Shown here one piece after another: positions 8,063 to 39,071 of a DNA stretch of 40,000 nucleotides. The position numbers and the translations under genes were made by a program. Below the pieces are notes generated by a model, which had not been told where the DNA came from, searched no databases, and saw nothing but the letters and a program-made list of their open reading frames with translations. The stretch's first letter is position 1. Each line of letters begins with the position of its first letter. The stretch is from Pseudomonadota bacterium. GTDB taxonomy: Bacteria > Pseudomonadota > Gammaproteobacteria > Burkholderiales > Ferrovaceae. The stretch lies in NCBI GenBank assembly GCA_021805445.1, contig JAJZFH010000047.1, positions 161,322-201,321 on the forward strand, given 5' to 3'.

Positions 8063-8107
8063 AATTCGCCTCACCTGCCGGGAGTTGACTTGATTATAAT
8101 CCCCCTT

Positions 8108-10761: not shown

Positions 10762-11507
10762 CCGACCCGCGCGCGCCCAGGATCGCCGTCTCCATCGTCA
10801 GCCATCGTCAGGCTCCCCTGGTCCAGGCACTGCTGGAGGATTTGGCGCAGCACGCCCCCGATGTGGCGATCCATCTCACGGCCAACCTGCCCGAACCTCC
10901 CCCCACTGCCCTTCTCCCCTTTACGCTGCTCACCAATCCTCACCCCAGGGGATTTGGAGAAAACCACAACGCCGCCCTCAAAGACAGCGATGCAGACTTC
11001 TTCTGTGTCCTCAATCCGGATATCCGTCTCACCAGCAACCCCTTTCCCGCCTTGCTGGAGGGTCTGAACGACCCCCGGGTCGGGCTGGTCGTTCCGCAGG
11101 TCTCCACGGCCCAAGGCATACCCGAGGATAGCGCCCGGCACTTTCCTACCCCGTTCGGATTGATGAAGAAAGTCGTGGGCTTGAATGATGGGCGTATCCT
11201 TTCGTCAGGCAGCGAACCCTATCCCATCGATTGGGGTGCCGGAATGTTCCTGCTGTTTCGGGCCAAGGCGTTCCGTGCCGTTCAGGGTTTCGATGAGAAC
11301 TTCTTCCTGTATTATGAGGATGTGGATATTTGCGTCCGTCTCTGGGCCCGGCACTGGCAGGTCAAACTCTGCCCACAGGTCACCGTCATCCATGACGCAC
11401 GACGGGATAGCCGCAGGAAACTGCGCTACACCCTGTGGCACCTATCCAGCATGGCCCGCTATTTTTTCAAACACGGCGGACGCCTTCCCGCCACGACGGC
11501 AAGATGA
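10758..11507 (+). CDS. Glycosyltransferase family 2
   Basis: ..IAVSIVSHRQAPLV.. (GT-A N-terminus), ..FFCVLNPDIRL.. and ..FFLYYEDVDICVRLW.., typical of COG1216-type GT2 enzymes. There is a 4-nt ATGA overlap with the methyltransferase. Confidence 0.75.
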   Translation: MTDPRAPRIAVSIVSHRQAPLVQALLEDLAQHAPDVAIHLTANLPEPPPTALLPFTLLTNPHPRGFGENHNAALKDSDADFFCVLNPDIRLTSNPFPALLEGLNDPRVGLVVPQVSTAQGIPEDSARHFPTPFGLMKKVVGLNDGRILSSGSEPYPIDWGAGMFLLFRAKAFRAVQGFDENFFLYYEDVDICVRLWARHWQVKLCPQVTVIHDARRDSRRKLRYTLWHLSSMARYFFKHGGRLPATTAR

Positions 11508-11522
11508 CAGCCCGGTCCGAAT

Positions 11523-12461
11523 TCATACCCGATTGAAAAGAGCTGCCACGAGTAACCCCAGTTGCCCGATGGCATGCTGGCGATGGACCCCGGAGCGTTT
11601 CAAGCCCAGCAAGCGCCCCTTCAAGGGTTGTTGTCGCGCCCACAGAAAAGTGCGCAGGGTCAGGGCATTCTCCAAGGTCAGGTGGCTCTCCAGACGCCGC
11701 AGGGCGCAGACGTGAATATCAGCCCAAAAAACGTAGTGCCGCTTCCACATGAAGCCCAGTCGAGACCAGCGTTTTGACCAACTGAGGCTGGCACCCACCA
11801 GGTTTTTCTCATGCTGGCGATAATTCAGGGAGGGCAGGGGATCGTAGCAGACTTGTCCGCCACACCCCGTCACCACCAGGTAAGTCCACCAGTCAAAAGT
11901 CACGACTTCCACCTCGGGTCCCGCTTCCTGCAACAAAATGCGGGCCGCCTGATTGAATACCATGGTGTTACCGCCGGCAATATTCTGCATGAGGGCATTG
12001 GCAAAGGACGGAGGTCGTTGCATCAGGGGAGAGAATCCACAAGGCAGGCCCTGCTCGTCCACCAAACGGGTACGCCCACAATACAAAGCCGGAACGGAGG
12101 CAGGGACCGTCGACAGCCAGGCCACAGCCCGGGTCAGTTTATCCCCATCCCACACGTCGTCCTGATCCGAGTAGGCGTAATAATCCGCCTGAATTTCGGA
12201 CCGGTATACCAGGGACAAAAAATTGGTCACGAACCCCCGCTTCGGCCCCGCCACCACCTTCATGCGTCCGGTCCACCGATCCTGATACTCCGCCAAAATC
12301 TCCAGGGTACCGTCCGTAGACCCATCATCCGAAGCCCACACCTGCCAATTCCCATGGTGCTGTGCCTCATAGGAGGCCAACTGCTCACGCAGAAATGCCG
12401 CACCATTGTAAGTGGCCAGCAGGATGGCGACGGAGGTGCCAGACTCTCCATTAGGATCCAT
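11523..12461 (-). CDS. Glycosyltransferase family 2 (rhamnosyltransferase-like)
   Basis: ..VAILLATYNGAAFLREQLASYEAQ.., ..WASDDGSTDGT.. and DxD-type ..YSDQDDVWD... It converges on the preceding GT2 gene with a 15-nt gap. Confidence 0.8.
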   Translation of the reverse strand: MDPNGESGTSVAILLATYNGAAFLREQLASYEAQHHGNWQVWASDDGSTDGTLEILAEYQDRWTGRMKVVAGPKRGFVTNFLSLVYRSEIQADYYAYSDQDDVWDGDKLTRAVAWLSTVPASVPALYCGRTRLVDEQGLPCGFSPLMQRPPSFANALMQNIAGGNTMVFNQAARILLQEAGPEVEVVTFDWWTYLVVTGCGGQVCYDPLPSLNYRQHEKNLVGASLSWSKRWSRLGFMWKRHYVFWADIHVCALRRLESHLTLENALTLRTFLWARQQPLKGRLLGLKRSGVHRQHAIGQLGLLVAALFNRV

Positions 12462-12895: not shown

Positions 12896-12988
12896 TGGCG
12901 GAGAGAGAGGGATTCGAACCCTCGATGCAGGTTTTGCCCGCATGCTCCCTTAGCAGGGGAGTGCCTTCGACCACTCGGCCATCTCTCC
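12896..12988 (-). tRNA. tRNA-Ser (anticodon GCU), CCA encoded
   Basis: The reverse complement reads GGAGAGATGGCCGAGTGGTCGAAGGCACTCCCCTGCTAAGGGAG...GGTTCGAATCCCTCTCTCTCCGCCA. It has a 7-bp acceptor stem, a CU-GCU-AA anticodon loop, the long variable arm typical of tRNA-Ser and a GGTTCGAATCC T-arm. Confidence 0.93.
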
Positions 12989-17009: not shown

Positions 17010-18037
17010 GGGCGTCCGCAATCATCTCCCTTGGGCGCGGCATACGTTCGATACCAATCAACGAACCGTTTCACGCCCTCCTCCACCGGCGTGTAGGAAG
17101 TGAAGTGGCAGTATTTTTCCAGTTCTTCGGTATTGGCTGCCGTAGCCATCACATCGCCTGGCTGCATGGGAAGAAGGTTTAGAATGGCTTTTCTGCCTGT
17201 AGCAACTTCGATGGCATGAATATAATCCATCAAAGGGGTGGGATGCTGGTTGCCTATATTGAAGAGTCGGTAAGGGGCCCAACTGGTGGCAGGGTCAGGA
17301 TGTTCTTTCTGAAAATGTTCATTGGGGGTGGCGGGTTTGTCCAGAACGCTCACAGTGCCCTCCACGATGTCATCGACGTATGTGAAGTCACGCACCATCT
17401 TCCCTTCGTTGTAAACATCGATCGGGGATCCTGCCAGGATGGCCTGGGTGAATTTGAACAGAGCCATGTCCGGGCGCCCCCAGGGACCGTAGACGGTGAA
17501 GAAACGGAGGCCCGTGGTGGGCAGATTGAATAGATGACTATAGGTATGGGCCATCAGTTCATTGGACTTTTTGGTGGCAGCATACAGACTGACGGGATGA
17601 TCGACGGCATGGTGCTCGGAAAAAGGCAGTTGAGTGTTGCCGCCATAGACACTGGAACTGCTGGCATAGACCAGATGTTCGACGGAATGGTGGCGACAAC
17701 CTTCCAGGATATTCAGAAAACCCTGGATATTCGCATTGATATACGCCTGGGGATGCTGCAGTGAGTGGCGCACCCCCGCTTGGGCGGCCAGGTTCACGAC
17801 CCTCCGGGGCTTTTCCTGGACGAAGAGTGCCTGCATGGCTGCTCCATCGGCAATATCGAGCCGATGAAAAGTGAAGTTTCCATAGGACGTGAGACGGGCC
17901 AGACGTGCTTCCTTGAGGGAAACGTCGTAGTAGTCATTGAGATTGTCCACCCCGACCACCTCATCCCCCCGCTCCAGAAGACGTCTGGAAACCTGCATGC
18001 CGATGAATCCGGCGCAACCTGTAAGAAGTATTTTCAT
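16955..18037 (-). CDS. NAD-dependent epimerase (UDP-glucuronate 4-epimerase-like extended SDR)
   Basis: MKILLTGCAGFIGMQV.. (GxxGxxG), ..YASSSSVYG.., ..YAATKKSNE.. (YxxxK) and ..RFFTVYGPWGRPDMA.., typical of the UDP-GlcA/GalA 4-epimerase clade. The C-terminus runs about 25 aa beyond the usual ..FVDWYRTY.. end and overlaps the GGDEF fragment by 55 nt. Confidence 0.88.
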   Translation of the reverse strand: MKILLTGCAGFIGMQVSRRLLERGDEVVGVDNLNDYYDVSLKEARLARLTSYGNFTFHRLDIADGAAMQALFVQEKPRRVVNLAAQAGVRHSLQHPQAYINANIQGFLNILEGCRHHSVEHLVYASSSSVYGGNTQLPFSEHHAVDHPVSLYAATKKSNELMAHTYSHLFNLPTTGLRFFTVYGPWGRPDMALFKFTQAILAGSPIDVYNEGKMVRDFTYVDDIVEGTVSVLDKPATPNEHFQKEHPDPATSWAPYRLFNIGNQHPTPLMDYIHAIEVATGRKAILNLLPMQPGDVMATAANTEELEKYCHFTSYTPVEEGVKRFVDWYRTYAAPKGDDCGRPHGITKDLKHPLPSRFAS

Positions 18038-18050
18038 CGATGATTTCAGA

Positions 18051-19484
18051 TTACTTTTTTTTGCCCTTGCGTGCCGCCAGTTCTGCCTTGATTTCGCTCA
18101 TCGTGGCTTCCACCTGGGACTTTTGATAGAAGTCTCCGTCGCCCGCTCCCAGGGCAATCTGGAGTTGATCCATGGCTGCACTGGGATTATCCAGCAACAG
18201 ATAGGCCTGGGCCAGAGCCTCGTGACTCATCATCTGCTGGTTCAGCGCAGCATAGGCTTGAGACTGGAATTCATACAACTGCTCATCGCTGCTGGTGAGT
18301 GCGATTCGTTCATTGATGATCTTGAGTGCCTGGACCGGCAACCCCGCGATCAACAGAGCCGAGATATACCCGTAATTGAGCGCGCGCTCATCGGGAAAGC
18401 GTTGCAATCCGTGTTGAAACTGGAGAATGGCCTGATGCACATGCCCCGAGTCCAGGGTAATCTGAGCGTGCAGACTGTCAAACAAGGCATTGGGAGGAGA
18501 AACGGCACGCACCTGTTTGAGCAGGGACTGAGCCTCTTCATAATCACGATTACGCCAAAGCGCAACCGCCTTGCCGTAGAGCAGAGGAACTTCCTCGGGG
18601 CGATGGATATCGTAGTCATGGTTCTGAAAACTCTCCAGTGCTTCATGAGGAGTTCCTACCAGAGCCTGAATACGGGCCTTGATGAGAGCAAAATCGGGGC
18701 CATCCTGAACTTGCCGGTAAGGAACGTTCTGCAGCCTGTCCTGTATTTCAGCCAAACGCTCGGTAGTCAGGGGGTGAGTCTGGAGAAAAGCAGGAGCTCC
18801 TTCATAGAAGCGACCATAACGCCCCAACTTGGTAAAAAACGTCGCCATGGCACGAGGGTCGTAGTCGGTCTTGAGGAGGCGACGAATCCCCAGGCGATCG
18901 GCTTCCCGTTCATTCCCCCGAGAAAAGTTCAGTTGGGCCTGGACCATTCCGGCCTGCGCTCCCACCACCCCACCCATGGCCCCATCAGGGCTGCTCCGCG
19001 CCGCCAGAATGGCCGCCGCCATGGCCGCCAGAGACAGAGGCAAATTCTTGTTCTGGTCCTCCATGGCACGGGCAATGTGGTGCTGGGTGACGTGGGAGAT
19101 TTCGTGGGCCAGTACCGAGGCCAGTTCAGACTCATTGTCCGCCGCTTCGATCAGGGCCGTATGTACCCCGATGAAACCACCGGGCAAGGCGAAGGCATTG
19201 AGGGTGGGATCTTCCAGGATAAAAAATTCGAAGTGATGCTGATCTCCCAGATCATCGCTCACTGCCAGAAGGCGGTGACCCACCGAACTGACAAAATCCA
19301 CGCTCTCCGGATCATTGAAATAGGACGGATCGGCGCGGATTTCCTGCATCACCTGGCGCCCCAGAGCCATTTCGTCCTTGCTTGACAGAGTCATGGAAGA
19401 ACTGTCGCCCAGATCGGGCAACTCGTAAGCCATCAGGTGCACGGACAGCAGGCTGGCACAAAGAAAAAGGAACCATCGTTTCAT
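18051..19484 (-). CDS. M48-family periplasmic metalloprotease with TPR repeats (BepA/YfgC-like)
   Basis: Signal peptide MKRWFLFLCASLLSVHLMA, the zinc motif ..VLAHEISHVTQHH.. (HExxH), and a C-terminal TPR-like half (..YGKAVALWRNRDYEEAQSLLKQ..). Confidence 0.8.
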   Translation of the reverse strand: MKRWFLFLCASLLSVHLMAYELPDLGDSSSMTLSSKDEMALGRQVMQEIRADPSYFNDPESVDFVSSVGHRLLAVSDDLGDQHHFEFFILEDPTLNAFALPGGFIGVHTALIEAADNESELASVLAHEISHVTQHHIARAMEDQNKNLPLSLAAMAAAILAARSSPDGAMGGVVGAQAGMVQAQLNFSRGNEREADRLGIRRLLKTDYDPRAMATFFTKLGRYGRFYEGAPAFLQTHPLTTERLAEIQDRLQNVPYRQVQDGPDFALIKARIQALVGTPHEALESFQNHDYDIHRPEEVPLLYGKAVALWRNRDYEEAQSLLKQVRAVSPPNALFDSLHAQITLDSGHVHQAILQFQHGLQRFPDERALNYGYISALLIAGLPVQALKIINERIALTSSDEQLYEFQSQAYAALNQQMMSHEALAQAYLLLDNPSAAMDQLQIALGAGDGDFYQKSQVEATMSEIKAELAARKGKKK

Positions 19485-19553
19485 GGTGCTTATGATACCT
19501 CACCCAAGGCAGTTTTCGCGGCCCCCCTTGGGGGTATGACTTGCCCTCCTGCG

Positions 19554-22268
19554 TCAGAGGGCAGCCAGACGTGCCAACTGGATTTCCACCTCGGCCAGGG
19601 AGTGACTGAAGCGGACCAAACGTTCGCGTTCCTGGGCAACCACGGAAACAGGCGCACGATCCACGAAACCGGGGTTGCCAAGTTTGGCGCTACAGCGCTC
19701 CACTTCGATCTTGGTCTTGTCCCGTTGTTTGGTCAGACGCTCGATTTCTGCGGGAATGTCCACCCGCACCTGTAATTGCATCTGAAGATGTTCCACCGTC
19801 ACCACCGGAGCCTCCGTCGACAGCAGGGGCGTGGCGCTGGCGTCCACCCCCGTGAGGCGTGCCAGATGCATCAGATAATGTTCCATACCGAGGAGCGCCT
19901 GCGTTGCCCCCGCCACTTTGAGAGGCAGTCGCTCTGCCGGACTGATGTTCATTTCTCCACGCAAGGTACGGCAACCGTTGACCCACGCCTTGAGACGTTC
20001 CATCGCCTCGTTGGCGGCCGGATCGGGGGCCAACGCAGGTTGCGGAAACGGCTGCAAGGCAATGCTGGAGCCCACGGCTTCCGGGGGGGCCACCTGCTGC
20101 CACAACTCCTCCGTGATGAAAGGCATCAGGGGGTGGGTCAGACGCAGAGCCGTTTCCAGAATCGAGCGCAATGTGGCATGGGTGGTGACCGCCGTGTCGG
20201 GGTTGGCCAACTGGGTCTTGGCCAGTTCCACATACCAGTCACAGAAGTCCTCCCATATGAATTCGTAGAGGGCACGCGCCACCGAATCAAATCGGTACTG
20301 AGCGAAATGCTCGTGAACCGCCCGAATGGTGGCATCGAGACGCTGTCCAATCCATCGGTCCGCCACCGTCGCTGCCCGAGCCGGCCCCTCCGGGGTCTCC
20401 TGCATCAGAACGAAGCGCGTGGCATTCCACAACTTGTTGCAAAAATTTCGATAGCCATCACAGCGTTGCAGATCAAACTTGATATCTCTTCCATGAGTGG
20501 CAAGACTGGCAAAGGTAAAACGCAGGGCATCGGTACCGAAGGCTGGAATGCCCTGAGGAAATTCGGCGCGCGTGGCCTTTTCGATCTTTTCTGCCTGACG
20601 AGGATCCATGAGGTGGGCAGTACGCTTGGCGACCAGAGATTCCAGATCGATCCCCTCGATCAGATCGAGGGGATCCAGCACGTTGCCACGGGACTTGCTC
20701 ATTTTGTGACCTTGGGCATCGCGCACCAGACCGGTGACAAAAACCTCCCGGAAGGGTACCTGTCCGGTGAAATGGGTGGTCATCATGACCATGCGGGCCA
20801 CCCAGAAGAAAATGATGTCGAAGCCCGTCACCAACACGCTGCTGGGCAGGAACTGGTGCAGTTCCGGGGTATTCTCCGGCCAACCCAGGGTAGAAAAGGG
20901 CCAGAGCGCCGAGGAGAACCAGGTATCGAGCACGTCGTCGTCCTGGCGCAGGGGTTTCCCGGCCTGTCGTTCCGCCTCCTGCTGGTTATCGGCCACATAG
21001 ACTCGTCCCTCATCATCGTACCAGGCAGGAATCCGGTGACCCCACCATAATTGTCGGGAAATGCACCAATGTTGCAAGTTTCCCAGCCAATGCTCGTAGG
21101 TGTGGACCCAATTCCCCGGCACAAACCGGATCTGTCCCTCATGCACCACGCGCAAGGCTTCCTGGCCCATGAGTTCGGTATCGAGAAACCATTGATCCGA
21201 AAGCATGGGTTCGATCACTGCGCCACTACGATCACCGCGCGGAATCATCAGGGTATGGGGTTTCACTTCGGCCAGCAGATTCCGGGCCGCCAAGTCGTCG
21301 ATGAGCCGCTGACGGGCGCGAAAACGTTCCAGCCCACGATATTCAGGGGGCACCTGATCGTTCAAGTGGGCATCCGGGGTAAAGATATTGAGAGGCGTCA
21401 ATCCATGCCGCTTGCCCATCTGATAATCATTGAAATCATGGGCCGGGGTGATCTTGACACAGCCCGTGCCGAAGGTAGGGTCCACCGCATCATCGGCAAT
21501 CACCGGAATGGTGCGATCAGTCAGGGGCAAATGAAGAGCGTGTCCGATGAGATCGCGATAACGCTCGTCGGCTGGGTGCACGGCCACGGCCACATCGCCC
21601 AGCAGGGTTTCGGGGCGGGTGGTGGCCACGACCAGATAGCCCTGGCCATCCACGCGGGGATAGCGGATATGCCAAAGATGCCCGGATTCTTCGTGGGCCT
21701 CCACTTCCAGGTCGGACACCGCCGTCTGCAGGTGAGGATCCCAATTGACCAGACGCTGGCCACGGTAGATCAACCCTTCCCGATACAGGTGAACGAATAC
21801 CTGGGTGACGGCCCGACTGAGGTCCTCGTCCAGAGTGAAACGCTCGCGAGTCCAGTCACAGGAACTGCCCAGGCGCCGCATTTGCCGGGTGATGGTGGAA
21901 CCGGACTGTTCCTTCCACTGCCAGACCCGCTCCAGAAAGGCCTCCCTCCCCAAAGTGTCACGCCTTTCCCCCCTGGCTTCCAGTTGACGTTCCACCAGCA
22001 TCTGGGTGGCAATCCCTGCATGATCCGTCCCCGCCTGCCACAGCACGTTCTCGCCCTTCATTCGATGGTAACGAATCAGGGCATCCATGAGGGTATGCTG
22101 AAAAGCGTGCCCCATATGCAATGTCCCCGTCACGTTGGGCGGTGGCAACAGGATGCAGTAAGCCTGGGCTTGGGAATCGAGGGAAGGCTTGAAATCACCG
22201 CGCGCTTCCCAGATGGGGTACCAGCGCGCCTCGATGGCCTGAGGATCAAAACTTTTGGCAAGACTCAT
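19554..22268 (-). CDS. valS: Valine--tRNA ligase
   Basis: Class I aaRS signatures ..[15 protein letters not shown].. (HIGH) and ..KMSKSRGN.. (KMSKS), the CP1 editing region and a C-terminal coiled coil. The ATG at 22268 (MSLAKSFDP..) is preferred over the TTG at 22277. Confidence 0.95.
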
Positions 22269-28289: not shown

Positions 28290-30266
28290 ATGACACAAAA
28301 GAGCGGCTTATTAAAACAGATCAAGGAATTGCTTTTTGGCCCGGCGCGCGACCCCTTTGCACCGGAAACGCGTCAGCACATCGCCCTCATGGCCTTTTTC
28401 GCGTGGGTGGGACTGGGGGCCGATGGTCTATCCTCCTCGGCCTATGGACCGGAAGAAGCCTTCAAGGCCCTGGGCACTCATGTCCACCTCAGCCTCTACC
28501 TGGCCATTGCCACCGCCTTCACGGTTTTCCTCATTTCCACCGCCTATAACCAGGTCATCGAACTGTTTCCCACAGGCGGCGGCGGGTATAAGGTCGCCAC
28601 CCAACTGATCGGGCCTCACGCCGGTCTGATCAGTGGAGCTGCATTGATCGTGGATTATGTCCTGACCATCGCCATTTCCGTGGCCAGTGGGGTGGATGCC
28701 GTTTTCAGTTCCTTGCCCACGACCTGGCAAAGTCACAAACTGACCGTCGAACTGTTCCTCACCCTGTTTCTAATGTTCCTGAATCTGCGCGGCATGAAGG
28801 AGAGTATCAAGATCCTGACCCCCATCTTCATGGGCTTCGTCATCACCCATGTGCTGATCATCGTGTATGGGGTGGCCATCCGTGGAAACGAGATTCCCTC
28901 CATCGTTCATCAGACGCTGCATGAAACCTCTTCTCTGGCAGGCCAGATGGGTTGGGTCTTCGCGGCCTCCCTGTTCCTGCGCGCCTATTCCATGGGGGGC
29001 GGAACCTATACGGGGATCGAAGCGGTATCCAACAATGTCAATGTGCTCCAGGAACCCCGGGTGCATACCGGAAAACTGACCATGTTCTACATGGCCACTT
29101 CCCTGGCCTTCACGGCGGGGGGCATCATCCTGCTCTACCTGTTGTGGAATGCCGTGCCCTCCAGCAATGGCGAAACCCTGAATGCCGTCGCTTTCCGTTC
29201 GGTCATCGCATCCCTTGGGCTCAGCCCCGGACTCTCCTTCGCGCTCCTCACCACCGTCCTGGTCCTCGAGGGTGCGCTCCTGTATGTGGCCGCCAATACA
29301 GGCCTGCTGGGCGGCCCCGCCGTGCTGGCCAACATGGCCAACGACGGTTGGACACCTTCCCAGTTCAGTTCCCTGTCCAGTCGCCTGGTCACCAAGTACG
29401 GAATCCTTCTGATGGGCATGGCAGCCCTTTTCATCCTGCTCTGGAGTGGTGGCATCGTCGACTTGCTGGCGGTGCTCTACAGCATCAACGTCTTTCTCAC
29501 CTTCAGTCTCTCGCTCACGGGACTGACCCTGTACTGGTGGAAGCACCGCGAACATCCCCAATGGGCCCTTCGCCTCGGGGTTTCCGTGGTGGGATTGCTG
29601 GTGACTTCGAGCATCCTCGTCGTCACCCTGGCGGAAAAGTTTTTTGAAGGCGGGTGGATGACCCTCCTCATCACCAGCGCCGTCATCGGCGTGTGTCTGT
29701 TGATTCGCCAACATTACCGCGAAACAGCCGCCCAGATGGCCAAGGCCGACCATCTGCTGTCCCAACTCCCGGCCACCCCGGTAGCCATTCCCCCAACCCT
29801 CGATCCCTATGCGCCCACCGCCGTCTTTCTGATCAGTCGTTCCAAGGGAGCGGGCATGCATACCATCCTGTGGGTCCAGCGCCTCTTTCCGCACGTCTAC
29901 CGCAATTTCGTGTTCCTCAGCGTGGGTGCCGTGGATACCCAAAGTTATGGCGGAGAAGGATCGATCGAGGGGCTCAAAGCCTCCGTTCATTCCGCCTGCG
30001 ACTACTATGTCAATTTCTGCCATCAGAATGGCATCGCCGCCAAATCCTACGAAGCCTATGGCACGGACCGGATCGCCGAACTCACCCGCTTGTCCGAGCA
30101 GGTCCATGAAGAATTTCCCAACAGCATCTTTTTTGCCAGCAAGTTGATCTTCGTCCACGATAACTGGCTGACACGCATCCTGCATAATCAAACCGCCCTG
30201 CAAATGCAACGGCTCCTTCATCTCCAGGGGATGACCATGGTGATCCTGCCCATGAAAGTCGACTGA
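28290..30266 (+). CDS. APC-superfamily permease with a C-terminal cytoplasmic domain (KimA/YdaO-like architecture, possibly a K+ or amino-acid transporter)
   Basis: 658-aa ORF whose N-terminal roughly 450 aa is polytopic. Segments ..GADGLSSSAYGPEEA.., ..FPTGGGGYKV.., ..IVDYVLTIAISVASGVDA.., ..FLNLRGMKES.. and the C-terminal ..ILHNQTALQMQRLL.. resemble my recollection of B. subtilis KimA. This is unverified. Confidence 0.7.
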   Translation: MTQKSGLLKQIKELLFGPARDPFAPETRQHIALMAFFAWVGLGADGLSSSAYGPEEAFKALGTHVHLSLYLAIATAFTVFLISTAYNQVIELFPTGGGGYKVATQLIGPHAGLISGAALIVDYVLTIAISVASGVDAVFSSLPTTWQSHKLTVELFLTLFLMFLNLRGMKESIKILTPIFMGFVITHVLIIVYGVAIRGNEIPSIVHQTLHETSSLAGQMGWVFAASLFLRAYSMGGGTYTGIEAVSNNVNVLQEPRVHTGKLTMFYMATSLAFTAGGIILLYLLWNAVPSSNGETLNAVAFRSVIASLGLSPGLSFALLTTVLVLEGALLYVAANTGLLGGPAVLANMANDGWTPSQFSSLSSRLVTKYGILLMGMAALFILLWSGGIVDLLAVLYSINVFLTFSLSLTGLTLYWWKHREHPQWALRLGVSVVGLLVTSSILVVTLAEKFFEGGWMTLLITSAVIGVCLLIRQHYRETAAQMAKADHLLSQLPATPVAIPPTLDPYAPTAVFLISRSKGAGMHTILWVQRLFPHVYRNFVFLSVGAVDTQSYGGEGSIEGLKASVHSACDYYVNFCHQNGIAAKSYEAYGTDRIAELTRLSEQVHEEFPNSIFFASKLIFVHDNWLTRILHNQTALQMQRLLHLQGMTMVILPMKVD

Positions 30267-30332: not shown

Positions 30333-31307
30333 ATGGACCTCTCTTCCACCACCTATCCTTTATTTCGCCATCTGAATTCCTGGCTCTCCCCTGGAGGCAG
30401 TGCTGGCACCTTGTCCATCCTGATCTACCACCGTGTACTGCCCAAACCCGACCCCCTCTTTCCGGATGAGGTGGATGCCTTACGTTTTGACGCGCAATTG
30501 AACCTGCTCAAGAACGTTTTTCACCTCCTTCCCTTACCCGAAGCGGTGGACAGGCTGAAAAACCATACCTTGCCCCCGCGCGCTGCCTGCCTCACCTTCG
30601 ACGACGGGTATGCCGACAACGCCTCCATCGCTCTCCCTCTGCTGAAAAAGCATGGGGTCTGCGCCACTTTTTTCGTGGCCTCGGGCTATTTGAACGGGGG
30701 ATGCATGTTCAATGATCGCGCCATCGAGTTGATCCGTCATCACCCTGCAGAATCCATTGATCTTCGCTTTCTTGAATTGGGGTCACTTCCGCTGACGACC
30801 CTGGAAGAACGGCAAACCGCCCTTCAAACCCTGCTACGACGCCTCAAATACGAAGCACCGGAAGTGCGTTGCGACCATCTCCACCATCTCGAAACGCAAC
30901 TGGGGTTCACGCCCCCCTCCGATCTCATGATGCATGATGCCCAAGTTTTGTCTCTGCACCAGGCGGGGATGAGCATAGGGGGACATACGGTCAATCATCC
31001 CATCTTGACCTCCCTTCCTCCCGCCGTTGCCCGCCGGGAAATCGAGCAGAACCGTTCCTACTTGACCCGGTTGCTGGGCGACCCTCCTGCCTTGTTCGCC
31101 TACCCCAATGGAAAATTCGGTCAGGACTATCGTCAGGAACACGCCGACATGGTGCGTGAAATGGGGTACTCGGCGGCGCTCTCCACTGAGCCGGGCATCG
31201 CACGGCGGGAAAGCGATCTGTTTCATTTGCCGCGTTTCACCCCCTGGGAGCGCTCGCTCCTGCGTTTCTCCCTGCGTCTCAGTCAAAACGTGTGGACCCA
31301 TTCCTGA
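30333..31307 (+). CDS. Polysaccharide deacetylase family protein (NodB homology domain)
   Basis: ..ILIYHRV.., ..ACLTFDDGYADN.. (the TFDDG metal/catalytic motif), ..ATFFV.. and ..GGHTVNHPIL... Confidence 0.8.
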   Translation: MDLSSTTYPLFRHLNSWLSPGGSAGTLSILIYHRVLPKPDPLFPDEVDALRFDAQLNLLKNVFHLLPLPEAVDRLKNHTLPPRAACLTFDDGYADNASIALPLLKKHGVCATFFVASGYLNGGCMFNDRAIELIRHHPAESIDLRFLELGSLPLTTLEERQTALQTLLRRLKYEAPEVRCDHLHHLETQLGFTPPSDLMMHDAQVLSLHQAGMSIGGHTVNHPILTSLPPAVARREIEQNRSYLTRLLGDPPALFAYPNGKFGQDYRQEHADMVREMGYSAALSTEPGIARRESDLFHLPRFTPWERSLLRFSLRLSQNVWTHS

Positions 31308-32897: not shown

Positions 32898-33131
32898 TCA
32901 AACAAGTCTCCGTATCACACACCCATGCAACCATTGAAATTCGGGCATGATTCCACACGATCACCCCGAAATGCCAAAGTGTCACGTTAACACAAAGTGG
33001 GCAGAAAAATGAGGACGCCGTTCGCTACGCAGTTCTCACCCCTCAATCTGTTCCAAATTTTGGGTAGCGTAAATATCCTTGTATGGGTTATCCTCACGGC
33101 TCAATCGATGAATCACTGTTCAGGAGGCATC

Positions 33132-34427
33132 ATGTCTGTGGTGGGTGAAGAGAGGATTATTTCCGTAGTCGGTCTGGGTTACGTGGGATTACCCGTGGCC
33201 GTAGCCTTTGGCAAGGTGCGCCGAACCATTGGATTTGACATCAATCCCTTGAGAATCCGTGAGTTGCGCTCTGGACATGACCGGACAGGAGAAGTCGAAG
33301 AGGGGGACCTCGATAAAGCGGATATTCTGTATACCGACCAGATCAGCGAACTCCAGCTGGCCAATTTCCATATCGTCGCCGTCCCGACCCCCGTCAACGA
33401 CGCCAATCAACCCGACCTCACCCCCATGTTGAAAGCCTCGGGAACGGTGGGAAGTGCCTTGAAGAAGGGGGATATCGTCGTTTATGAATCCACGGTCTAC
33501 CCCGGAGTCACGGAAGAGGAATGCGTCCCCATTCTGGAAGCAAAATCCGGCCTGAAATGTGGTGTCGATTTCAAGGTAGGCTATAGTCCTGAACGCATCA
33601 ACCCCGGGGACAAGGAACACACCTTTACCAAGATCAAGAAGGTGGTATCGGGACAGGATACCGAAACCTGCGAGATCGTCGCTCGGGTCTACGAATCCGT
33701 GGTCACGGCGGGCGTTCACCGCGCCCCCTCCATCAGGGTAGCCGAGGCCGCCAAGGTCATCGAGAACACGCAACGGGACCTGAATATCGCCTTGATGAAT
33801 GAACTGGCCCTGATTTTCGATCTGATGAACATCGATACCAATGCCGTACTGGAAGCCGCCGGAACCAAATGGAACTTTCTCAAGTTCAAACCAGGCCTGG
33901 TCGGCGGTCACTGCATCGGGGTAGATCCCTATTATCTCACCCATAAAGCCGAAAAATTGGGATACATTCCCCAGGTCATCCTTTCCGGGCGACGCATCAA
34001 CAATGGCATGGGGAAATTCGTGGCCCAGCGGTGTGTCAAGGAAATGGTCCATGCCGGGCATGTCATCTCGGGCAGTCGTGTCACCGTCCTCGGACTCACC
34101 TTCAAGGAAAACTGCCCGGATCTGCGGAATTCCAAGGTCATTGATATCATCCATGAATTACAGGATTATGGCATCGAGGTACAGATCCATGACCCCCTGG
34201 CAGACCCCCACGAAGCCGAAGAAGAATACGGCGTTTCCATCACCCCTACCGTTGCCCTGAAACCTGCGGCAGCCGTCATTCTGGCCGTGGCCCACGACGA
34301 ATATCGGACCCTCCAGACCGCAGGAATCTTGGCCCTGATGGGCGATTGTCCCGTTCTGATCGATGTCAAGGGTCTTTTTTCCCGCGACGATTTCTCTCAT
34401 TCCACCCTGCGTCTCTGGCGGCTATGA
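33132..34427 (+). CDS. Nucleotide-sugar 6-dehydrogenase, UDP-N-acetylhexosamine type (TviB/WbpO/VipA-like)
   Basis: ..[17 protein letters not shown].. (NAD fold), catalytic Cys ..[14 protein letters not shown].. and ..[17 protein letters not shown]... The ATG at 33132 is preceded by CAGGAGG. The longer track start at 32997 is rejected. Confidence 0.88.
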
Positions 34428-35452
34428 CCACGCACTACGACCTCATTCAAAACGAGATTCAGGCAACGCCACGACGTTGGGCTGTCACCGGGGTGGCGGG
34501 GTTCATTGGTTCCAACCTGCTCGAGACCTTGCTTCGACTGGATCAGACGGTCGTGGGATTGGATAACTTTTCCACCATCGACGACCGTAACCTGAAGCAG
34601 GTCCAGAAACTGGTCGGAGAATCCCGCTGGAAAAACTTCACTTTTTTCAAGGGAGACATCCGCCACCTCGACGATTGTCAACGAGTCTGTGACCGGGCGG
34701 ATATCGTGTTGCATCAGGCTGCCCTGGGCAGTGTTCCCCGTTCCATCGAGGACCCTCTGACCACCCATGCCAGCAACATCGATGGATTCCTCAACATGCT
34801 GAGAACGGCGCAACTCATGGGGATTGAACGCTTCATCTATGCCGCGTCGAGTTCCACTTATGGGGATCATCCCGGACTTCCCAAAAAAGAGGAGATCATC
34901 GGCAACCCTCTCTCCCCCTACGCCGTCACGAAACTGGTCAATGAACTCTATGCACAGGTCTTTGACCGGGTCTATCAGTTCAAAGCCACTGGTCTGCGCT
35001 ATTTCAATGTCTTCGGTCCCCGTCAAAATCCGGAGGGCGCTTATGCTGCCGTCATTCCCAAGTGGTTTGGCGGACTATTGAAAGGAAATCCAATCGATAT
35101 CAATGGCGATGGTGAAACCAGCCGCGATTTCTGTTACATCGACAATGTCGTTCAAGCCAATCTTCTGGCGGCTTGTACGGAACAGCCTGAGGCTCTGGGA
35201 CAGGTCTATAACATCGCCTACTCGGAATCCACCACTCTCAACCAGTTGTACGCCCTGATCTGCGCCCAACTGAAGCAGCGATCTCCTTCCTGGGAGATCC
35301 CCCGCCCCCGTTACCGGGATTTTCGGGCAGGAGATGTTCGCCATTCCCTGGCGGACATTCACAAGGCCCGGCGACTCCTGGGTTACGAGCCCCGTTTCTC
35401 GGTCAAGGAAGGATTGGAAAAGGCCGCGGACTGGTACACGCACAATCTGTGA
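34424..35452 (+). CDS. NAD-dependent 4-epimerase of the TviC/WbpP type (UDP-GlcNAc(A) to UDP-GalNAc(A))
   Basis: ..[19 protein letters not shown].., ..[13 protein letters not shown].., ..[10 protein letters not shown].., ..[11 protein letters not shown].. and ..[23 protein letters not shown]... The ATG at 34424 overlaps the upstream stop (ATGA). Confidence 0.88.
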
Positions 35453-35473
35453 GTTCGTTTCCACAAACCCATC

Positions 35474-36718
35474 ATGAGTAAACCGGTCCATCATCCTGCT
35501 TGTTTCGTCATGGGATCGGGCGATCCCTCGTCCATCGGCGGGGTAGATCTTCCACGCCTGGCCCATCAAATCGGCCAAACCCCCTTCTTTGCCTATGACC
35601 GCACACGGATCTTTGACCGTATCCGGCACCTGCGTTCCGTACTGCCCGAAGGAATTCACCTGCACTACGCCATCAAGGCCAATCCCATGCCAGCCGTGGT
35701 CCAGTTTCTCGCCACCCAGGTGGACGGTCTGGATGTGGCTTCCGGAGGAGAATTGGGCGTGGCGTTGGACACCCTGATCCCGCGCGCCCATATCAGTTTT
35801 GCCGGCCCCGGCAAATCCCACCGCGATCTTCTGATGGCCATGGCCGCAGGCGTCGTACTCAATCTGGAATCCGAAGGGGAACTGACGACAGTCTGCTCCT
35901 TGAGCGAACACCATGGCTACCGACCCAAAGTGGCCATCCGGGTCAACCCGGATTTTGAATTGCGGGGTTCCGGTATGCGCATGGGCGGCGGTGCCAAACC
36001 CTTTGGGGTCGATGTGGAACGGGTTCCTGCCATGGTCCGCCGCATCTTGTCCTCTGACCTGATTTTTCAGGGTTTTCATATTTTCAGCGGGTCACAGAGT
36101 CTCAAGGCGGATGCCCTCATCGAGGCTCAGAAAAATACGGTGGATCTGGCCATCCGACTGGTTCAGGAAACCGGGTGTCCCCTTCCCACCCTGAACTTGG
36201 GAGGAGGCTTCGGGATTCCTTATTTTCCTGGCGAATCTCCTCTGGAAGTCGAGCGGGTGGGAGAAGCCTTGCAGCACCTGTTATCTCATCTGCGCCAGCA
36301 GTTGCCCGATACCCAACCCGTCATCGAGTTGGGCCGTTACCTCGTCGGTGAAGCGGGCGTGTATGTGTGCCGCATCATCGACCGCAAGATTTCCCGGGGT
36401 CAGACCTTCCTCATCACCGATGGGGGACTCCACCACCACTTGGCGGCATCCGGCAATTTTGGTCAGGTCATCCGCAAGAATTATCCGGTGGCCATCGTCA
36501 CCCGCAAAAAATCCCCTCCTCTGGAAGAAGTCTCGGTGGTAGGCCCTCTGTGCACTCCACTCGACCTCCTGGCCGACAAAATGATCCTGCCCTGTGCCGA
36601 GGTAGGTGACCTGGTGGTAATCTACCAGTCTGGGGCCTATGGCCCGAGCGCCAGCCCTGCAGCCTTTCTGGGACACCCCTCAGCTCGTGAAGCGTTGATC
36701 GGAGACGTATCGCCATGA
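35474..36718 (+). CDS. PLP-dependent decarboxylase, Orn/DAP/Arg decarboxylase fold-III family (diaminopimelate-decarboxylase-like)
   Basis: PLP-lysine motif ..HYAIKANPMPAVV.., ..LNLGGGFGIPY.., active-site ..VVGPLCTPLDLL.. and ..YQSGAYGPSAS... Confidence 0.85.
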   Translation: MSKPVHHPACFVMGSGDPSSIGGVDLPRLAHQIGQTPFFAYDRTRIFDRIRHLRSVLPEGIHLHYAIKANPMPAVVQFLATQVDGLDVASGGELGVALDTLIPRAHISFAGPGKSHRDLLMAMAAGVVLNLESEGELTTVCSLSEHHGYRPKVAIRVNPDFELRGSGMRMGGGAKPFGVDVERVPAMVRRILSSDLIFQGFHIFSGSQSLKADALIEAQKNTVDLAIRLVQETGCPLPTLNLGGGFGIPYFPGESPLEVERVGEALQHLLSHLRQQLPDTQPVIELGRYLVGEAGVYVCRIIDRKISRGQTFLITDGGLHHHLAASGNFGQVIRKNYPVAIVTRKKSPPLEEVSVVGPLCTPLDLLADKMILPCAEVGDLVVIYQSGAYGPSASPAAFLGHPSAREALIGDVSP

Positions 36719-38388
36719 CCGCGTTGGCACTATTTTTTGGTCATCCACGCTTTCAGGAACGAGACCTGACCGAAATTTCCCGCACCCAGGGGATAGAGAG
36801 TGCATGGCGCGAAGCCTTTCGCCGTCATGGCCCTCAAGCCCCCAATCATGTTCAGGGAGACTTTGCCGTGGCTTTTTCGCCGGAGCCGGGCAAGACTTTC
36901 ATGGCCGTGGATCGCTTCGCGCGCCGTTCGTTATGTTATCGCGTCGAGAATTCCTCAACTCTCCACGTGGCCGCGCGCGCCGATGAAGTTACGGCATCCC
37001 CTTCGTCGATCGATATACAGGCCATTTATGACTACTTTCATTTTCATGTCATTCCCGCGCCGCGCACCATCTTCCAGAATGTGTTGCGTCTCCCTGCAGC
37101 GCATTATGGACTGTTCCACGAGGGGCAACTCACGGTCGCCCCGTACTGGATACCCCGGTTCACCTCACCCGGTCCATCCGACTTTTCTTCCTTGAAGGAA
37201 GAATTTCGGGACATTCTACGAAGTTCGGTTCAAAGCCAATGTCATGCAGGCGATCGAACCGGCTGTTTTCTCAGTGGGGGGACCGACAGTTCCACCGTTG
37301 CAGGGGTATTGAGCCAGCACCTCGGAGAAGGCGTACCCACCTACTCCATCGGCTTCGATGCGGAAGGCTATGATGAAATGGAGTACGCACGCCTCGCTGC
37401 CCGTCATTTCAAAACCCAGCACCATGAATACTATGTCACCCCGGAGGATCTGGTTCAGGGAATTCCGCGTGTCGCGGCCTACTACGACCAACCCTTTGGC
37501 AATTCTTCCGCCCTGCCCGGCTTCTACTGCGCCCAACGAGCCCAACAGGACGGGGTACAACGATTGCTGGCAGGAGATGGCGGGGATGAATTGTTTGGCG
37601 GAAACAGCCGCTACGCCAAGCAAAAGTTGTTTCACGCCTATACCCGCTTGCCTTCCATCCTGCGGCAAGGGCTTCTCGAACCTCTGGCACCTCTTTTCAA
37701 CCGACTCCCTCTGGCGCGCAAACTGGGCAGTTATATCGACCAGGCCAAGATCCCCATGCCGGACCGGATCACCGCCTATGGATTGCTGGAACACATCGGG
37801 GTGGAGAACATTTTTCCCGAACGGATTTTCTCCCTGTTTTCACCGAGGGCTTCTCGCACACTGGAACAAACGGTTTGGCACGCAACCGATGGAGCGGATT
37901 TCGTCAATCAGATGCTGGCCTATGACTGGCGCTTTACTCTGGCCGAAAATGATTTACCCAAGGTCTGCGGGACCTCAGCCCTGGCAGGCATCGAGGTCGG
38001 TTTTCCCTTGCTGGACGAGCGATTGGTGGATTTTTCCCTGAAACTCCCAACCCATTACAAGGTCAAGAACCTCAAACTGCGTTGGTTTTTCAAGGAAGCG
38101 TTACGAGGTTTCCTTCCGGACGAAATCATCACCAAGCAAAAGCATGGCTTCGGTCTTCCCTTCGGGGTATGGGTACTCCGTCATCCTCCCCTGCATCAAC
38201 TGGCCGAATCTTCCCTGCATCAGTTGGCCGAACGCGGACTGATCCGACATACCTTCGTGGATCAACTGTTCCAGCAACACTTACCCGACCATCCGGGGTT
38301 CTATGGGGAAATGGTGTGGATCCTCCTCATGCTGGAACAGTGGTTTCAAGCCCACGCCGACCACTACCAGTTCGCTCCCTCCGACTGA
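36715..38388 (+). CDS. Asparagine synthetase B-family ATP-dependent amide ligase with a degenerate (Cys-less) glutaminase domain
   Basis: PP-loop ..CFLSGGTDSSTVAG.. and ..LLAGDGGDELFGGNSRY... The N-terminus is MTALALFF.. (no Met-Cys nucleophile), and ..RRHGPQAPNHVQGDFAVAF.. skips the core of the Ntn domain. There is a 4-nt ATGA overlap with the decarboxylase. Confidence 0.85.
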   Translation: MTALALFFGHPRFQERDLTEISRTQGIESAWREAFRRHGPQAPNHVQGDFAVAFSPEPGKTFMAVDRFARRSLCYRVENSSTLHVAARADEVTASPSSIDIQAIYDYFHFHVIPAPRTIFQNVLRLPAAHYGLFHEGQLTVAPYWIPRFTSPGPSDFSSLKEEFRDILRSSVQSQCHAGDRTGCFLSGGTDSSTVAGVLSQHLGEGVPTYSIGFDAEGYDEMEYARLAARHFKTQHHEYYVTPEDLVQGIPRVAAYYDQPFGNSSALPGFYCAQRAQQDGVQRLLAGDGGDELFGGNSRYAKQKLFHAYTRLPSILRQGLLEPLAPLFNRLPLARKLGSYIDQAKIPMPDRITAYGLLEHIGVENIFPERIFSLFSPRASRTLEQTVWHATDGADFVNQMLAYDWRFTLAENDLPKVCGTSALAGIEVGFPLLDERLVDFSLKLPTHYKVKNLKLRWFFKEALRGFLPDEIITKQKHGFGLPFGVWVLRHPPLHQLAESSLHQLAERGLIRHTFVDQLFQQHLPDHPGFYGEMVWILLMLEQWFQAHADHYQFAPSD

Positions 38389-38437: not shown

Positions 38438-38884
38438 TCAGTGCGGAGCCCCCGGAGGCGCGGCGGGCACGGTGCGCCATGGCTCAGGACAATTCTGCAC
38501 ATAGGGGTAGTAACCCTTGGCAGAAGCGCAGTAAAACCAACTGTTGGCGGCGGTGTGCTGCTGGCTCTGCCCAGGGGGCGGCGGTGCCATGGACTGGGAA
38601 GGTTGCTGGCGCGGTGGCTGTGCCTGAGGAGGGGAGGAATAAACCATCGGTTGCTGCTGGACCACCACGGGCGGGGCAGCATAGACCACCGGCGCAGGGT
38701 AATAGGGGTAGGGATAAACACGGTAAGGATTTGCCAACTCCGCCCCTACCAGTGCCCCGGTTGCCAACCCCATCATTCCCCAACCCCAGCCCCAACCTCG
38801 ATCCGCCTGTGCAGGTACCGCCACCAAAGCACCCCAGACCCCCAATCCCAGAAGAAGCATTCGTACCGGTTTCAAACTCATCAT
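38438..38884 (-). CDS. Small exported protein: signal peptide, glycine-zipper/Trp-Gly repeat, Pro/Gln-rich linker, C-terminal two-Cys motif
   Basis: The ATG at 38884 is preceded by GGGAGAG. The product reads MMSLKPVRMLLLGLGVWGALVAVPAQA|DRGWGWGWGMMGLATGALVGAELA.., then a P/Q/V-rich stretch, then ..WFYCASAKGYYPYVQNCPEPWRTVP... No catalytic motif is present. Confidence 0.6.
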   Translation of the reverse strand: MMSLKPVRMLLLGLGVWGALVAVPAQADRGWGWGWGMMGLATGALVGAELANPYRVYPYPYYPAPVVYAAPPVVVQQQPMVYSSPPQAQPPRQQPSQSMAPPPPGQSQQHTAANSWFYCASAKGYYPYVQNCPEPWRTVPAAPPGAPH

Positions 38885-39071
38885 GGAATCTCTCCCAAAA
38901 AACCCAAAGCCCACGGAACAAGTGGACTCAATGGATAACGAAAAGTTCCCCCCCTCACGCACCATGCACGCCGCTGCATCGAAGGGATCCTCAGGGGCTT
39001 GTCAAATTCGTACGAACGCATACAATACACCCTACACTTCCGATTTTACTCCGATCTCACAAGGATGATCC

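Follow-up and report, generated by a model that had tools for sequence, protein, structure and literature searches.

The 40,000-nucleotide stretch of DNA analysed here (the window; contig JAJZFH010000047.1, positions 161,322 to 201,321 of the forward strand, assembly GCA_021805445.1) comes from a Ferrovum myxofaciens-like betaproteobacterium and carries, at 33132-38388, four co-directional plus-strand open reading frames (ORFs) that form one operon. The first two genes belong to the synthesis of UDP-linked N-acetylhexosamine (HexNAc) uronic acids, and the third and fourth encode a predicted pyridoxal 5'-phosphate (PLP)-dependent decarboxylase and a predicted amide ligase with the fold of asparagine synthetase B (AsnB). 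We found that the decarboxylase and the AsnB-like gene are a recurrent part of exosortase A (XrtA)/PEP-CTERM exopolysaccharide loci, within an exosortase-A gene set known from bioinformatics, and that the window represents a rare arrangement, with the pair separated from its usual neighbours, an AMP-ligase and an acyl carrier protein (ACP), and placed behind tviB/tviC. Our preferred reading, held tentatively and at somewhat less than an even chance, is that the pair is a sub-module adding an amide-linked, decarboxylated amino-acid substituent to N-acetylgalactosaminuronic acid (GalNAcA) of an exosortase-associated polysaccharide. The operon consists of the following features:

33132-34427, plus strand: predicted UDP-HexNAc 6-dehydrogenase (TviB/WbpO-like), the first operon gene, from NF011729, TIGR03026 and three UDPG_MGDP_dh Pfam domains

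34424-35452, plus strand: predicted UDP-HexNAc(A) C4-epimerase (TviC/WbpP-like), from NF011728 and the WbpP structure 1sb8

35453-35473, plus strand: intergenic gap of 21 nt between tviC and the decarboxylase gene, with no recognisable Shine-Dalgarno sequence

35474-36718 (alternative start 35510), plus strand: predicted PLP-dependent decarboxylase of the alanine-racemase fold, a TIGR03099 member, from TIGR03099 and homology to BtrK

36715-38388, plus strand: predicted AsnB-fold ATP-dependent amide ligase with a truncated, dead N-terminal glutaminase domain, from Pfam Asn_synthase, TIGR03108 and an AlphaFold (AF2) model

The original prediction, made from the sequence alone, described four genes on one strand joined by two ATGA overlaps and a 21-nt gap. 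The ORFs lie exactly where it had placed them, and the junctions, read directly, agree with it. The tviB-like and tviC-like genes share an ATGA at 34424-34427, the tviC-like gene stops at a TGA at 35450-35452 and is followed 21 nt later by the ATG at 35474, and the decarboxylase and ligase genes share a second ATGA at 36715-36718. An AGGAGG at 33122-33127 precedes the first ATG of the operon at 33132. Gene callers on identical contigs chose a decarboxylase start 36 nt further downstream (window 35510, 402 amino acids), which would make the gap 57 nt, and neither decarboxylase start is preceded by a clear Shine-Dalgarno sequence. Scans for sigma-70 promoters and terminators found no such signals inside the operon above shuffle expectation, and by-eye inspection upstream of 33132 gave no convincing match to a sigma-54 promoter. 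The operon ends at 38388. A 222-amino-acid plus-strand ORF downstream of the ligase was considered as a fifth gene and rejected as spurious, the gene callers and a 3-nt indel pattern favouring a minus-strand gene there.

Profile searches bore out the identities that had been proposed for all four genes. The dehydrogenase matches the TviB model NF011729 over its full length (514.8 bits, E 1.6e-154) and the NDP-sugar dehydrogenase subfamily TIGR03026 at 380 bits, above the cutoff of 189.8, and all three UDPG_MGDP_dh Pfam domains are detected. The epimerase likewise matches the TviC model NF011728 over its full length (450.7 bits, E 3.1e-135). Both fall below the equivalog cutoffs of these models (592 and 760 bits, respectively), which are Salmonella-centred. 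The best solved homologue of the epimerase is Pseudomonas aeruginosa WbpP (1sb8), again a full-length match (459.7 bits, E 4.9e-137). Because of this homology to WbpO/TviB and WbpP/TviC, genes 1 and 2 should make UDP-GalNAcA from UDP-GlcNAc. Ullrich et al. annotated the F. myxofaciens orthologues of both genes likewise, with FEMY_12020 given as a UDP-GalNAc dehydrogenase.

The search against exosortase-associated families that the original prediction had proposed proved informative for the third gene, which is a full member of the 'exosortase A system-associated' decarboxylase family TIGR03099 (593.7 bits, E 1.8e-178, cutoff 478.45, model positions 7-398 of 398). It scores 223.5 bits against LysA (TIGR01048), below the cutoff of 297.9, and 43 bits against the FslC model, whose cutoff is 500. 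In a search of the PDB, its best solved homologue is BtrK (7ru7; 263 bits, E 4e-77, full length), an L-glutamyl-[BtrI acyl-carrier protein] decarboxylase. The second best is SbnH (6knh; 146.7 bits), an N-citryl-diaminopropionate decarboxylase, and bona fide diaminopimelate (DAP) decarboxylases reach at most 139 bits. The catalytic motifs are intact, including the PLP lysine in AIKAN, GGGFG, ELGR and the loop at the catalytic cysteine. That loop reads GPLCTPLD in the window decarboxylase, GPLCTPED in BtrK, GQLCTPKD in SbnH and GPVCESSD in the Helicobacter pylori DAP decarboxylase, so that the CES(G)D substrate loop of DAP decarboxylases is replaced here by CTPLD, and the window enzyme, BtrK and SbnH have a CTPxD loop in common. 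BtrK, SbnH, FigC, AcsE and MccE form one clade with DAP decarboxylase, and each of the five takes an amino acid that is already conjugated via its distal group (Li et al., PMC7857480). A resemblance to enzymes acting on tethered amino acids thus fits the window decarboxylase better.

Two of these relatives offer fuller parallels. The butirosin enzyme BtrK shares the CTPxD loop and the HHH...NYP region with the window decarboxylase, and the ligase-carrier-decarboxylase logic of BtrI/BtrJ/BtrK is that of the canonical cassette in which the decarboxylase usually occurs (described below). The partner ligase here is of the ANL (adenylating) or AsnB type, whereas BtrJ is an ATP-grasp enzyme, the window has no carrier protein, and the context is a polysaccharide rather than an aminoglycoside. 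The siderophore enzymes SbnH, FigC (FslC) and AcsE follow a logic in which ligation comes first and decarboxylation then yields the amine, and SbnH shares the CTPxD loop; their acyl partner, in contrast, is citrate, activated by an NIS (siderophore) synthetase.

The sole Pfam match of the fourth gene product is Asn_synthase (273 bits, E 6.4e-81). Against TIGR03108 the ligase stays far short of the cutoff (262.5 bits against 816.9), and its alignment is confined to model positions 106-626. It also misses the cutoffs for asparagine synthetase B (TIGR01536; 206.9 bits, cutoff 267.1) and for the lasso-peptide/macrolactam cyclase models NF033535 (115.9 bits, cutoff 525) and NF033561 (66.8 bits, cutoff 300). 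Judged by these scores and by the beta-lactam synthetase test, which it likewise fails, the ligase falls in no curated family. Its sequence is remote from all solved structures, the closest being AsnB (49.7 bits), beta-lactam synthetase (39.7 bits) and CarA (39 bits). The AF2 model has a mean local confidence (pLDDT) of 92 and a predicted template-modelling score (pTM) of 0.91, and has the two-domain AsnB fold. Its best fold match in the PDB is the hydroxyamidotransferase TsnB9 (template-modelling score 0.70), followed by AsnB, human ASNS, beta-lactam synthetase and CarA; this search confirmed the AsnB fold and did not identify the acyl substrate.

The ligase begins MTALALFF, and its ORF cannot be extended upstream. 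Aligned with full-length paralogues from related loci, which have these parts, it lacks about 75 N-terminal residues together with the MCGI, HRGPD, RRLSIID, NGEIYN and SDTE motifs. With neither the N-terminal cysteine nucleophile nor the glutamine-binding motifs, it is predicted to be glutaminase-dead. The original prediction had reported the missing nucleophile; that observation stands and extends to every glutamine-binding motif and to the family as a whole. The synthetase half is intact, and 71 homologues show no variation in the PP-loop SGGTDSS, in GDGGDELFGG or in the lysine that corresponds to AsnB K449. The aspartate loop of AsnB is not conserved, reading TTIRAS in AsnB and PFGNSSA in the ligase family.

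Orthologues in the surveyed loci L015, L018 and L019 (47-48% identical) and L090 are about 610 amino acids long, start with MSG[ILV]CG and have lost all the glutamine-binding motifs. Because these full-length forms have already lost them, the loss of glutaminase function appears to be older than the N-terminal truncation. Such forms, with the cysteine shifted from position 2, occur in L015 (9818-11650), L018, L019, L050, L051 and L090 (8250-10085), and they look like an intermediate stage of glutaminase decay before truncation of the window type.

These features place the ligase in an unnamed family that is glutaminase-dead throughout and is a sister of the WbpS/TIGR03108 uronic-acid amidotransferases. 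TIGR03108 includes WbpS, WbqG and PGN_1234, and deletion of PGN_1234 turns a uronamide into a uronic acid (PMC7468200), genetic evidence that upholds the earlier assumption that WbpS-type AsnB enzymes form uronamides. The window ligase shares with these enzymes the AsnB fold, the adenylating PP-loop domain and a place in polysaccharide loci, and theirs is the named family it scores best against. It differs in its distance from the family cutoff (262 bits against 817), in its truncated N-terminal domain and in its want of a glutaminase, so that it would have to use an amine other than one derived from glutamine. Bona fide TIGR03108 paralogues (1086 bits for the member in L005) coexist with the AsnB-like gene in the same loci, which fits an origin of the ligase by duplication followed by loss of the glutaminase. 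The sister family is a likely source of N-substituted sugar amides. Homologues are abundant in Betaproteobacteria, the closest named one coming from a Ferrovum metagenome-assembled genome (88% identity), with others in Rhodocyclaceae, Sulfuritalea, Azonexus and Rubrivivax at about 57-62% identity. One 728-amino-acid homologue (P0004, 96% identical to the ligase) was considered as a domain fusion and rejected, its 170-residue low-complexity tail being nonsense from a frameshift and downstream read-through.

The dead N-terminal domain also bears on the lactam alternative raised by the original prediction, taken here to cover a small-molecule lactam or peptide product unrelated to glycans, as in the tabtoxin pairing of TabA with TblS, in beta-lactam synthetase or in lasso-type macrolactams. 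The ligase, beta-lactam synthetase and CarA do have a common fold, and the N-terminal domain is dead in all of them. The bit scores point the other way, with AsnB ahead of both enzymes and the lasso cyclase model, at 116 bits, short of its cutoff of 525. Nearby there are no DapB/DapD-like genes and no precursor-peptide or tailoring genes, and all the related loci that we examined are polysaccharide loci. With neither scores nor context in its favour, we regard this suggestion as very improbable.

We surveyed the genomic setting of the pair in two ways. A scan of reference genomes centred on the ligase gave 80 loci, of which 40 were orthologue-like (at least 38% identity) and were compared, by tblastn within 10 kb, with 20 loci of distant paralogues. 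A metagenome scan centred on the decarboxylase gave 80 further loci, 61 with enough flank to place the AMP-ligase and 28 with wide flanks. At least one XrtA cassette gene was present in 23 of the 40 ligase-centred loci, and the decarboxylase in 13 (adjacent in 9), whereas none of the 20 distant-paralogue loci had cassette genes, decarboxylase or deacetylase. In the decarboxylase-centred set, a TIGR03098 AMP-ligase lies directly upstream of the decarboxylase in 53/61 loci and the AsnB-like gene directly downstream in 27/59; among loci with wide flanks, the AMP-ligase is found in 27/28, an ACP in 20/28 and hydrolases in 16-17/28. The usual order across about 120 related loci is TIGR03098 AMP-ligase, decarboxylase and AsnB-like gene, usually with an ACP, two hydrolases and a CE4 deacetylase nearby. 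In Ferribacterium limneticum, NCBIfam models identify a TIGR03013 XrtA glycosyltransferase, TIGR03098, TIGR03099, an ACP and TIGR03101/TIGR03100 hydrolases, after which comes the AsnB-like gene. Another contig (P0008) carries, within a stretch of 21 kb, an ACP, two hydrolases, a FemAB-like gene, the AMP-ligase, the decarboxylase, the AsnB-like gene, an acyltransferase, a deacetylase, Wzy_C, glycosyltransferases, a full-length AsnB and XrtA/EpsI. Markers of XrtA systems (TIGR03013 glycosyltransferase, PrsT or XrtA/EpsH) occur in L086, L041, L090 and this contig. Linkage of the pair to tviB/tviC, as in the operon that the original prediction described, is exceptional in these surveys (3/80 decarboxylase-centred loci and 2/40 ligase-centred loci, the latter being the only two with a close TviB homologue).

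Two further observations came from these loci. An AsnB-like orthologue with 61% identity lies outside any exosortase cassette in L088 (7977-18275), among genes for a Ser/Thr kinase, a HAD-UbiA prenyltransferase, a FAD-binding_4 oxidase and short-chain dehydrogenase/reductase or epimerase proteins, a set that seems to recall DprE1/DprE2, the epimerase system for decaprenyl-phosphoribose. In XrtA loci, a gene for a short serine protease of the HtrA/trypsin type is found repeatedly beside tviB or AsnB-like genes (L090, 12589-14211; L041, 11568-12389; L093, 7756-8406) and is also found in the F. myxofaciens XrtA region, as FEMY_14280 in the COG table (the supplementary tables are offset by one locus tag).

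The prevalence of the AMP-ligase and ACP raises the possibility of a carrier-protein pathway, in which an amino acid is attached to an ACP by a TIGR03098 ligase whose gene lies elsewhere in the genome, and the decarboxylase turns it into an omega-aminoacyl-S-ACP, following BtrI/BtrJ/BtrK. The AsnB-like enzyme would then act on a carrier-bound or lipid-type product, and the position behind tviB/tviC would reflect co-regulation of exopolysaccharide genes rather than a shared substrate. The frequencies given above are in keeping with this, as is the decarboxylase itself: its catalytic and substrate-loop motifs, compared after tblastn extraction of the orthologues (an earlier regular-expression pass was too strict), are identical to those of 15 AMP-ligase-adjacent orthologues from XrtA loci. 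Because of this match, the decarboxylase substrate is probably the same as in the canonical cassette and not special to the window operon. The XrtA locus of F. myxofaciens retains a TIGR03098 ligase, and in L090 an ACP and a hydrolase are still encoded at a distance of 6 kb. On the other side stand the ATGA-level coupling in the tviB-tviC-decarboxylase-ligase transcript of the window, the UDP-HexNAc pathway genes that adjoin the decarboxylase in all four arrangements without an AMP-ligase, and the published F. myxofaciens tables, which list no ACP or exosortase hydrolase and may omit small genes. On balance, we consider the carrier-protein pathway quite unlikely.

The window itself departs from the canonical cassette in a specific way. 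Its decarboxylase scores as TIGR03099, the orthologues of its AsnB-like gene follow an AMP-ligase and a decarboxylase, and the host species has an XrtA locus; the window differs in that tviB/tviC take the place of the AMP-ligase upstream. By tblastn, no homologues of the AMP-ligase, ACP or exosortase hydrolases were found in the 40-kb window, and there is no exosortase among its annotated ORFs. The gene order (valS, holC, pepA, lptF, aceE, permease, deacetylase, major facilitator superfamily transporter, dehydrogenase, epimerase, decarboxylase, Asn-synthase, glutathione S-transferase, EmrA) is that of FEMY_11940-12100 in the published genome of F. myxofaciens Z-31. Contigs encoding a ligase protein of 88-100% identity carry this operon as well, and so does L089, where the identity of the decarboxylase is 91%. 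In F. myxofaciens, the XrtA/PEP-CTERM locus (FEMY_14240-14420) lies about 230 genes away and has the TIGR03098 ligase, with no decarboxylase adjacent. Both the XrtA system and the wbpP-like epimerase have been reported only in F. myxofaciens strains and not in group 2 Ferrovum strains. In L084, a relative at 88% identity on a 46.6-kb contig, aceE and the 658-amino-acid permease gene are present twice (1-3587 and 17960-21674), about 18 kb apart; these repeats flank the whole deacetylase-operon-efflux region and may have arisen by direct duplication of a large segment or be an artefact of assembly.

An upstream AMP-ligase is missing from only four decarboxylase loci (L089, L090, L091 and L093), in each of which the decarboxylase has genes of the UDP-HexNAc pathway beside it. 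L089 has the Ferrovum-type arrangement. In L090 and L091, an operon of deacetylase, decarboxylase and long-form AsnB-like gene is convergent with tviC and tviB, and in L093 the order is wecB, decarboxylase and an oxidoreductase dependent on flavin adenine dinucleotide (FAD). L090 is a genuine XrtA locus (PrsT, 842 bits) and also carries an XDD4-like exosortase-dependent protein. L090 and L091 represent different organisms, with proteins 59-83% identical, no nucleotide match found between them and a GC content of 52% versus 48.5%. A second, divergent lineage has independently placed the deacetylase, decarboxylase and AsnB-like genes beside tviB/tviC. Adjacency to tviB/tviC is found in 3/4 loci without the AMP-ligase against 0/57 with it (Fisher p = 1e-4, or 2e-3 with L090 and L091 collapsed). 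This recurrence in two gene orders is the best evidence that the decarboxylase, AsnB-like enzyme and deacetylase act on the HexNAc-uronic acid pathway. As a separate observation, the TIGR03099-type decarboxylase of L093 (1667-6802) lies between the UDP-GlcNAc 2-epimerase WecB and the FAD-dependent oxidoreductase, with a deacetylase nearby and neither an AMP-ligase nor an AsnB-like gene.

The deacetylase that accompanies the pair in these loci has a counterpart upstream of the window operon:

30333-31307, plus strand: predicted CE4 polysaccharide deacetylase, from Pfam Polysacc_deac_1

This gene is parted from the operon by a divergent EmrB gene, and its N-terminus, read directly, has no obvious signal peptide. 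In 20/40 orthologue loci a homologue with 38-60% identity is encoded no more than 10 kb from the AsnB-like gene, and in 8 it is directly adjacent. Because it co-occurs with the decarboxylase/AsnB-like pair, the deacetylase is a probable fifth member of the system. It was also considered as a member of TIGR03006, together with its homologues in L007 and L028, and this assignment was rejected, as no NCBIfam cutoff was reached; the window protein matched other CE4 models weakly and below cutoff, and neither the L007 nor the L028 homologue gave a match at E 1e-10. From these scores, the window deacetylase belongs to a CE4 family other than that of the annotated PEP-CTERM deacetylase of F. myxofaciens.

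The main rival to our preferred reading makes fuller use of this deacetylase. Here the CE4 enzyme would unmask the 2-amine of GalNAcA, either UDP- or lipid-linked, and the AsnB-like enzyme, true to the ancestral chemistry of AsnB, would adenylate the side-chain carboxylate of Asp or Glu and couple it to this amine. A BtrK-like decarboxylation would then convert gamma-glutamyl to 4-aminobutyryl or beta-aspartyl to beta-alanyl, giving a 2-N-(omega-aminoacyl) uronic acid analogous to the T9SS (type IX secretion system) linking sugar. Next to the decarboxylase, no gene neighbours the AsnB-like gene more often than the deacetylase does, the three form an operon in L090 and L091, BtrK, the closest characterised decarboxylase, acts on gamma-derivatised L-glutamate, and DegT-type aminotransferases adjoin the AsnB-like gene in L020 and L087. 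There is also a precedent, in that the CE4 enzyme VimE and VimA produce uronic acids with a 2-N-seryl or 2-N-glycyl group, which serve as acceptors for sorted proteins (PMC7468200). Against this, acylation at N-2 leaves the specific coupling to uronic-acid genes unexplained, and the ligase resembles WbpS-type enzymes slightly more than AsnB, whose aspartate-loop residues it has not conserved. Moreover, CE4 enzymes usually act on polymers outside the cytoplasm, and the ATP- and PLP-dependent steps must be cytoplasmic. Overall, we think this route unlikely.

Under our preferred reading, an amide-linked substituent on GalNAcA, the AsnB-like enzyme would activate a carboxylate by ATP-dependent adenylation, and the most likely candidate is that at C-6 of GalNAcA, as is thought for the WbpS-type relatives of the enzyme. 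The C-6 position is favoured because TIGR03108 is the nearest named family, with the PGN_1234 phenotype as its precedent, and because the pair is coupled here to tviB/tviC. The adenylated carboxylate would be coupled to an organic amine and not to ammonia, since the ligase cannot make ammonia from glutamine. The decarboxylase may act not on a free amino acid but on one tethered by its distal group to the sugar or to a carrier protein, as with BtrK, SbnH and FigC, and would remove the alpha-carboxylate so that a primary amine is created or unmasked. Genes 3 and 4 probably work with the CE4 deacetylase, and the net product would be a GalNAcA residue of the exosortase-associated polysaccharide bearing an amide-linked aminoalkyl or aminoacyl arm.

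The order of these steps differs from what the original prediction had put first. It had proposed that the decarboxylase makes a free amine (cadaverine, putrescine or lysine from DAP would be examples), with which the ligase then amidates UDP-GalNAcA, and had mentioned decarboxylation after ligation as the alternative. A ligase unable to make ammonia and an operon tied to UDP-GalNAcA synthesis would suit such a scheme, and the Campylobacter jejuni HS:2 capsule provides a model: Cj1436 decarboxylates to the amine before the amidoligase Cj1438 couples that amine to glucuronic acid (PMC11800397). Going by published functions, the two systems are alike in that a decarboxylase and an ATP-dependent ligase lead to an N-substituted uronamide in a capsule. 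They differ in that in C. jejuni a free amine, in the form of a phosphate ester, is produced ahead of ligation, and that ligation there acts on glucuronic acid (PMC11800397). The homology pattern in the window argues against this order. All of the closest characterised decarboxylases take conjugated substrates, the LysA score is below its cutoff with the DAP-binding loop replaced, and the near-obligate pairing with an adenylating ligase and ACP elsewhere points to a tethered substrate. Of the two orders, decarboxylation after ligation fits BtrK, SbnH and the CTPLD loop better, and formation of the free amine first fits worse; we give the latter little credence.

Several points weigh against an amide-linked substituent on GalNAcA. 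The ligase is only modestly more similar to TIGR03108 (262 bits) than to AsnB (207 bits), and the acyl substrate cannot be read from its sequence. In most genomes the pair adjoins the AMP-ligase and ACP and not uronic-acid genes, the active site of the decarboxylase is unchanged here, and F. myxofaciens still encodes a TIGR03098 ligase in its XrtA locus; the decarboxylase substrate may be an aminoacyl-S-ACP that never touches GalNAcA. The frequent adjacency of the deacetylase fits equally well with a de-N-acetylated sugar as the amine and Asp or Glu as the acyl partner. Within the operon, the junction between tviC and the decarboxylase lacks a Shine-Dalgarno sequence, and the decarboxylase start is ambiguous. 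Lastly, we found no functional study of the decarboxylase/AsnB-like pair in the literature, and the Haft 2006 paper does not mention these genes. With the pair so common in XrtA loci, the novelty that the original prediction saw in it was overstated.

The T9SS offers a comparison for what such a sugar might do. In that system, proteins are attached to a 2-N-aminoacyl uronic acid or uronamide, which is assembled with the help of Wbp enzymes, a CE4 deacetylase, VimA and WbpS, and it has been speculated that XrtA systems use a similar sugar (Veith et al., PMC7468200). The window operon would be in keeping with such a sugar. Common to both systems are a HexNAc-uronic acid, a CE4 enzyme and an AsnB-family enzyme, which in the T9SS serve an amine-bearing sugar for sortase-like protein anchoring. 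The window differs in having no VimA/FemAB-like gene, in having a decarboxylase, which the T9SS pathway lacks, and in its dead ligase, the glutaminase of WbpS being active.

Elsewhere in the window, three regions are of interest in their own right. A small secreted protein is encoded at 38438-38965 on the minus strand, convergent with the operon. The protein has MSLKPVRMLLLGLGVWGALVAVPAQA as its signal peptide, a Gly/Trp repeat, a middle part rich in Pro and Tyr and, at the C-terminus, the motif CxxxxGYYPYVxxCPxxW. It matches nothing in Pfam or NCBIfam and is conserved, with a 3-nt indel, in the relative at 88% identity. Between aceE and the deacetylase, at 28290-30266 on the plus strand, lies the gene for the 658-amino-acid APC-family amino-acid permease, which has a long C-terminal extension and is kept in Ferrovum relatives. 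A separate small glycan cluster at 6062-12461 encodes a WbpM/PglF-type membrane 4,6-dehydratase, a Wzx-like flippase (8090-9541), an S-adenosylmethionine-dependent methyltransferase and two GT2 glycosyltransferases, and ends beside a tRNA-Ser gene (12896-12988, minus strand). GC content falls to about 0.53 at 12-16 kb of the window, because of which the cluster may be an island.

Exosortase/PEP-CTERM systems, which were reportedly predicted in 2006, are responsible for the flocs and streamers that bacteria form in wastewater and acid mines. The exosortase-A gene set itself was already known; what is new are two diverged arrangements in which the decarboxylase/AsnB-like pair lies beside UDP-GalNAcA genes. 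These Ferrovum-type and L090/L091-type rearrangements name GalNAcA as a concrete candidate substrate, and the set of four or five genes is compact enough for heterologous reconstitution. Our analysis also delineates an unnamed, uniformly glutaminase-dead sister family of the WbpS amidotransferases. A more far-reaching possibility, which we consider improbable, is that the decarboxylase, the dead-glutaminase ligase and the deacetylase build an amine-terminated GalNAcA derivative that is the long-sought acceptor, or 'linking sugar', for the transfer of PEP-CTERM proteins by exosortase A. If this were true, the product would be a proteobacterial counterpart of the T9SS Wbp/Vim linking sugar, and the Ferrovum operon would be its minimal genetic definition.

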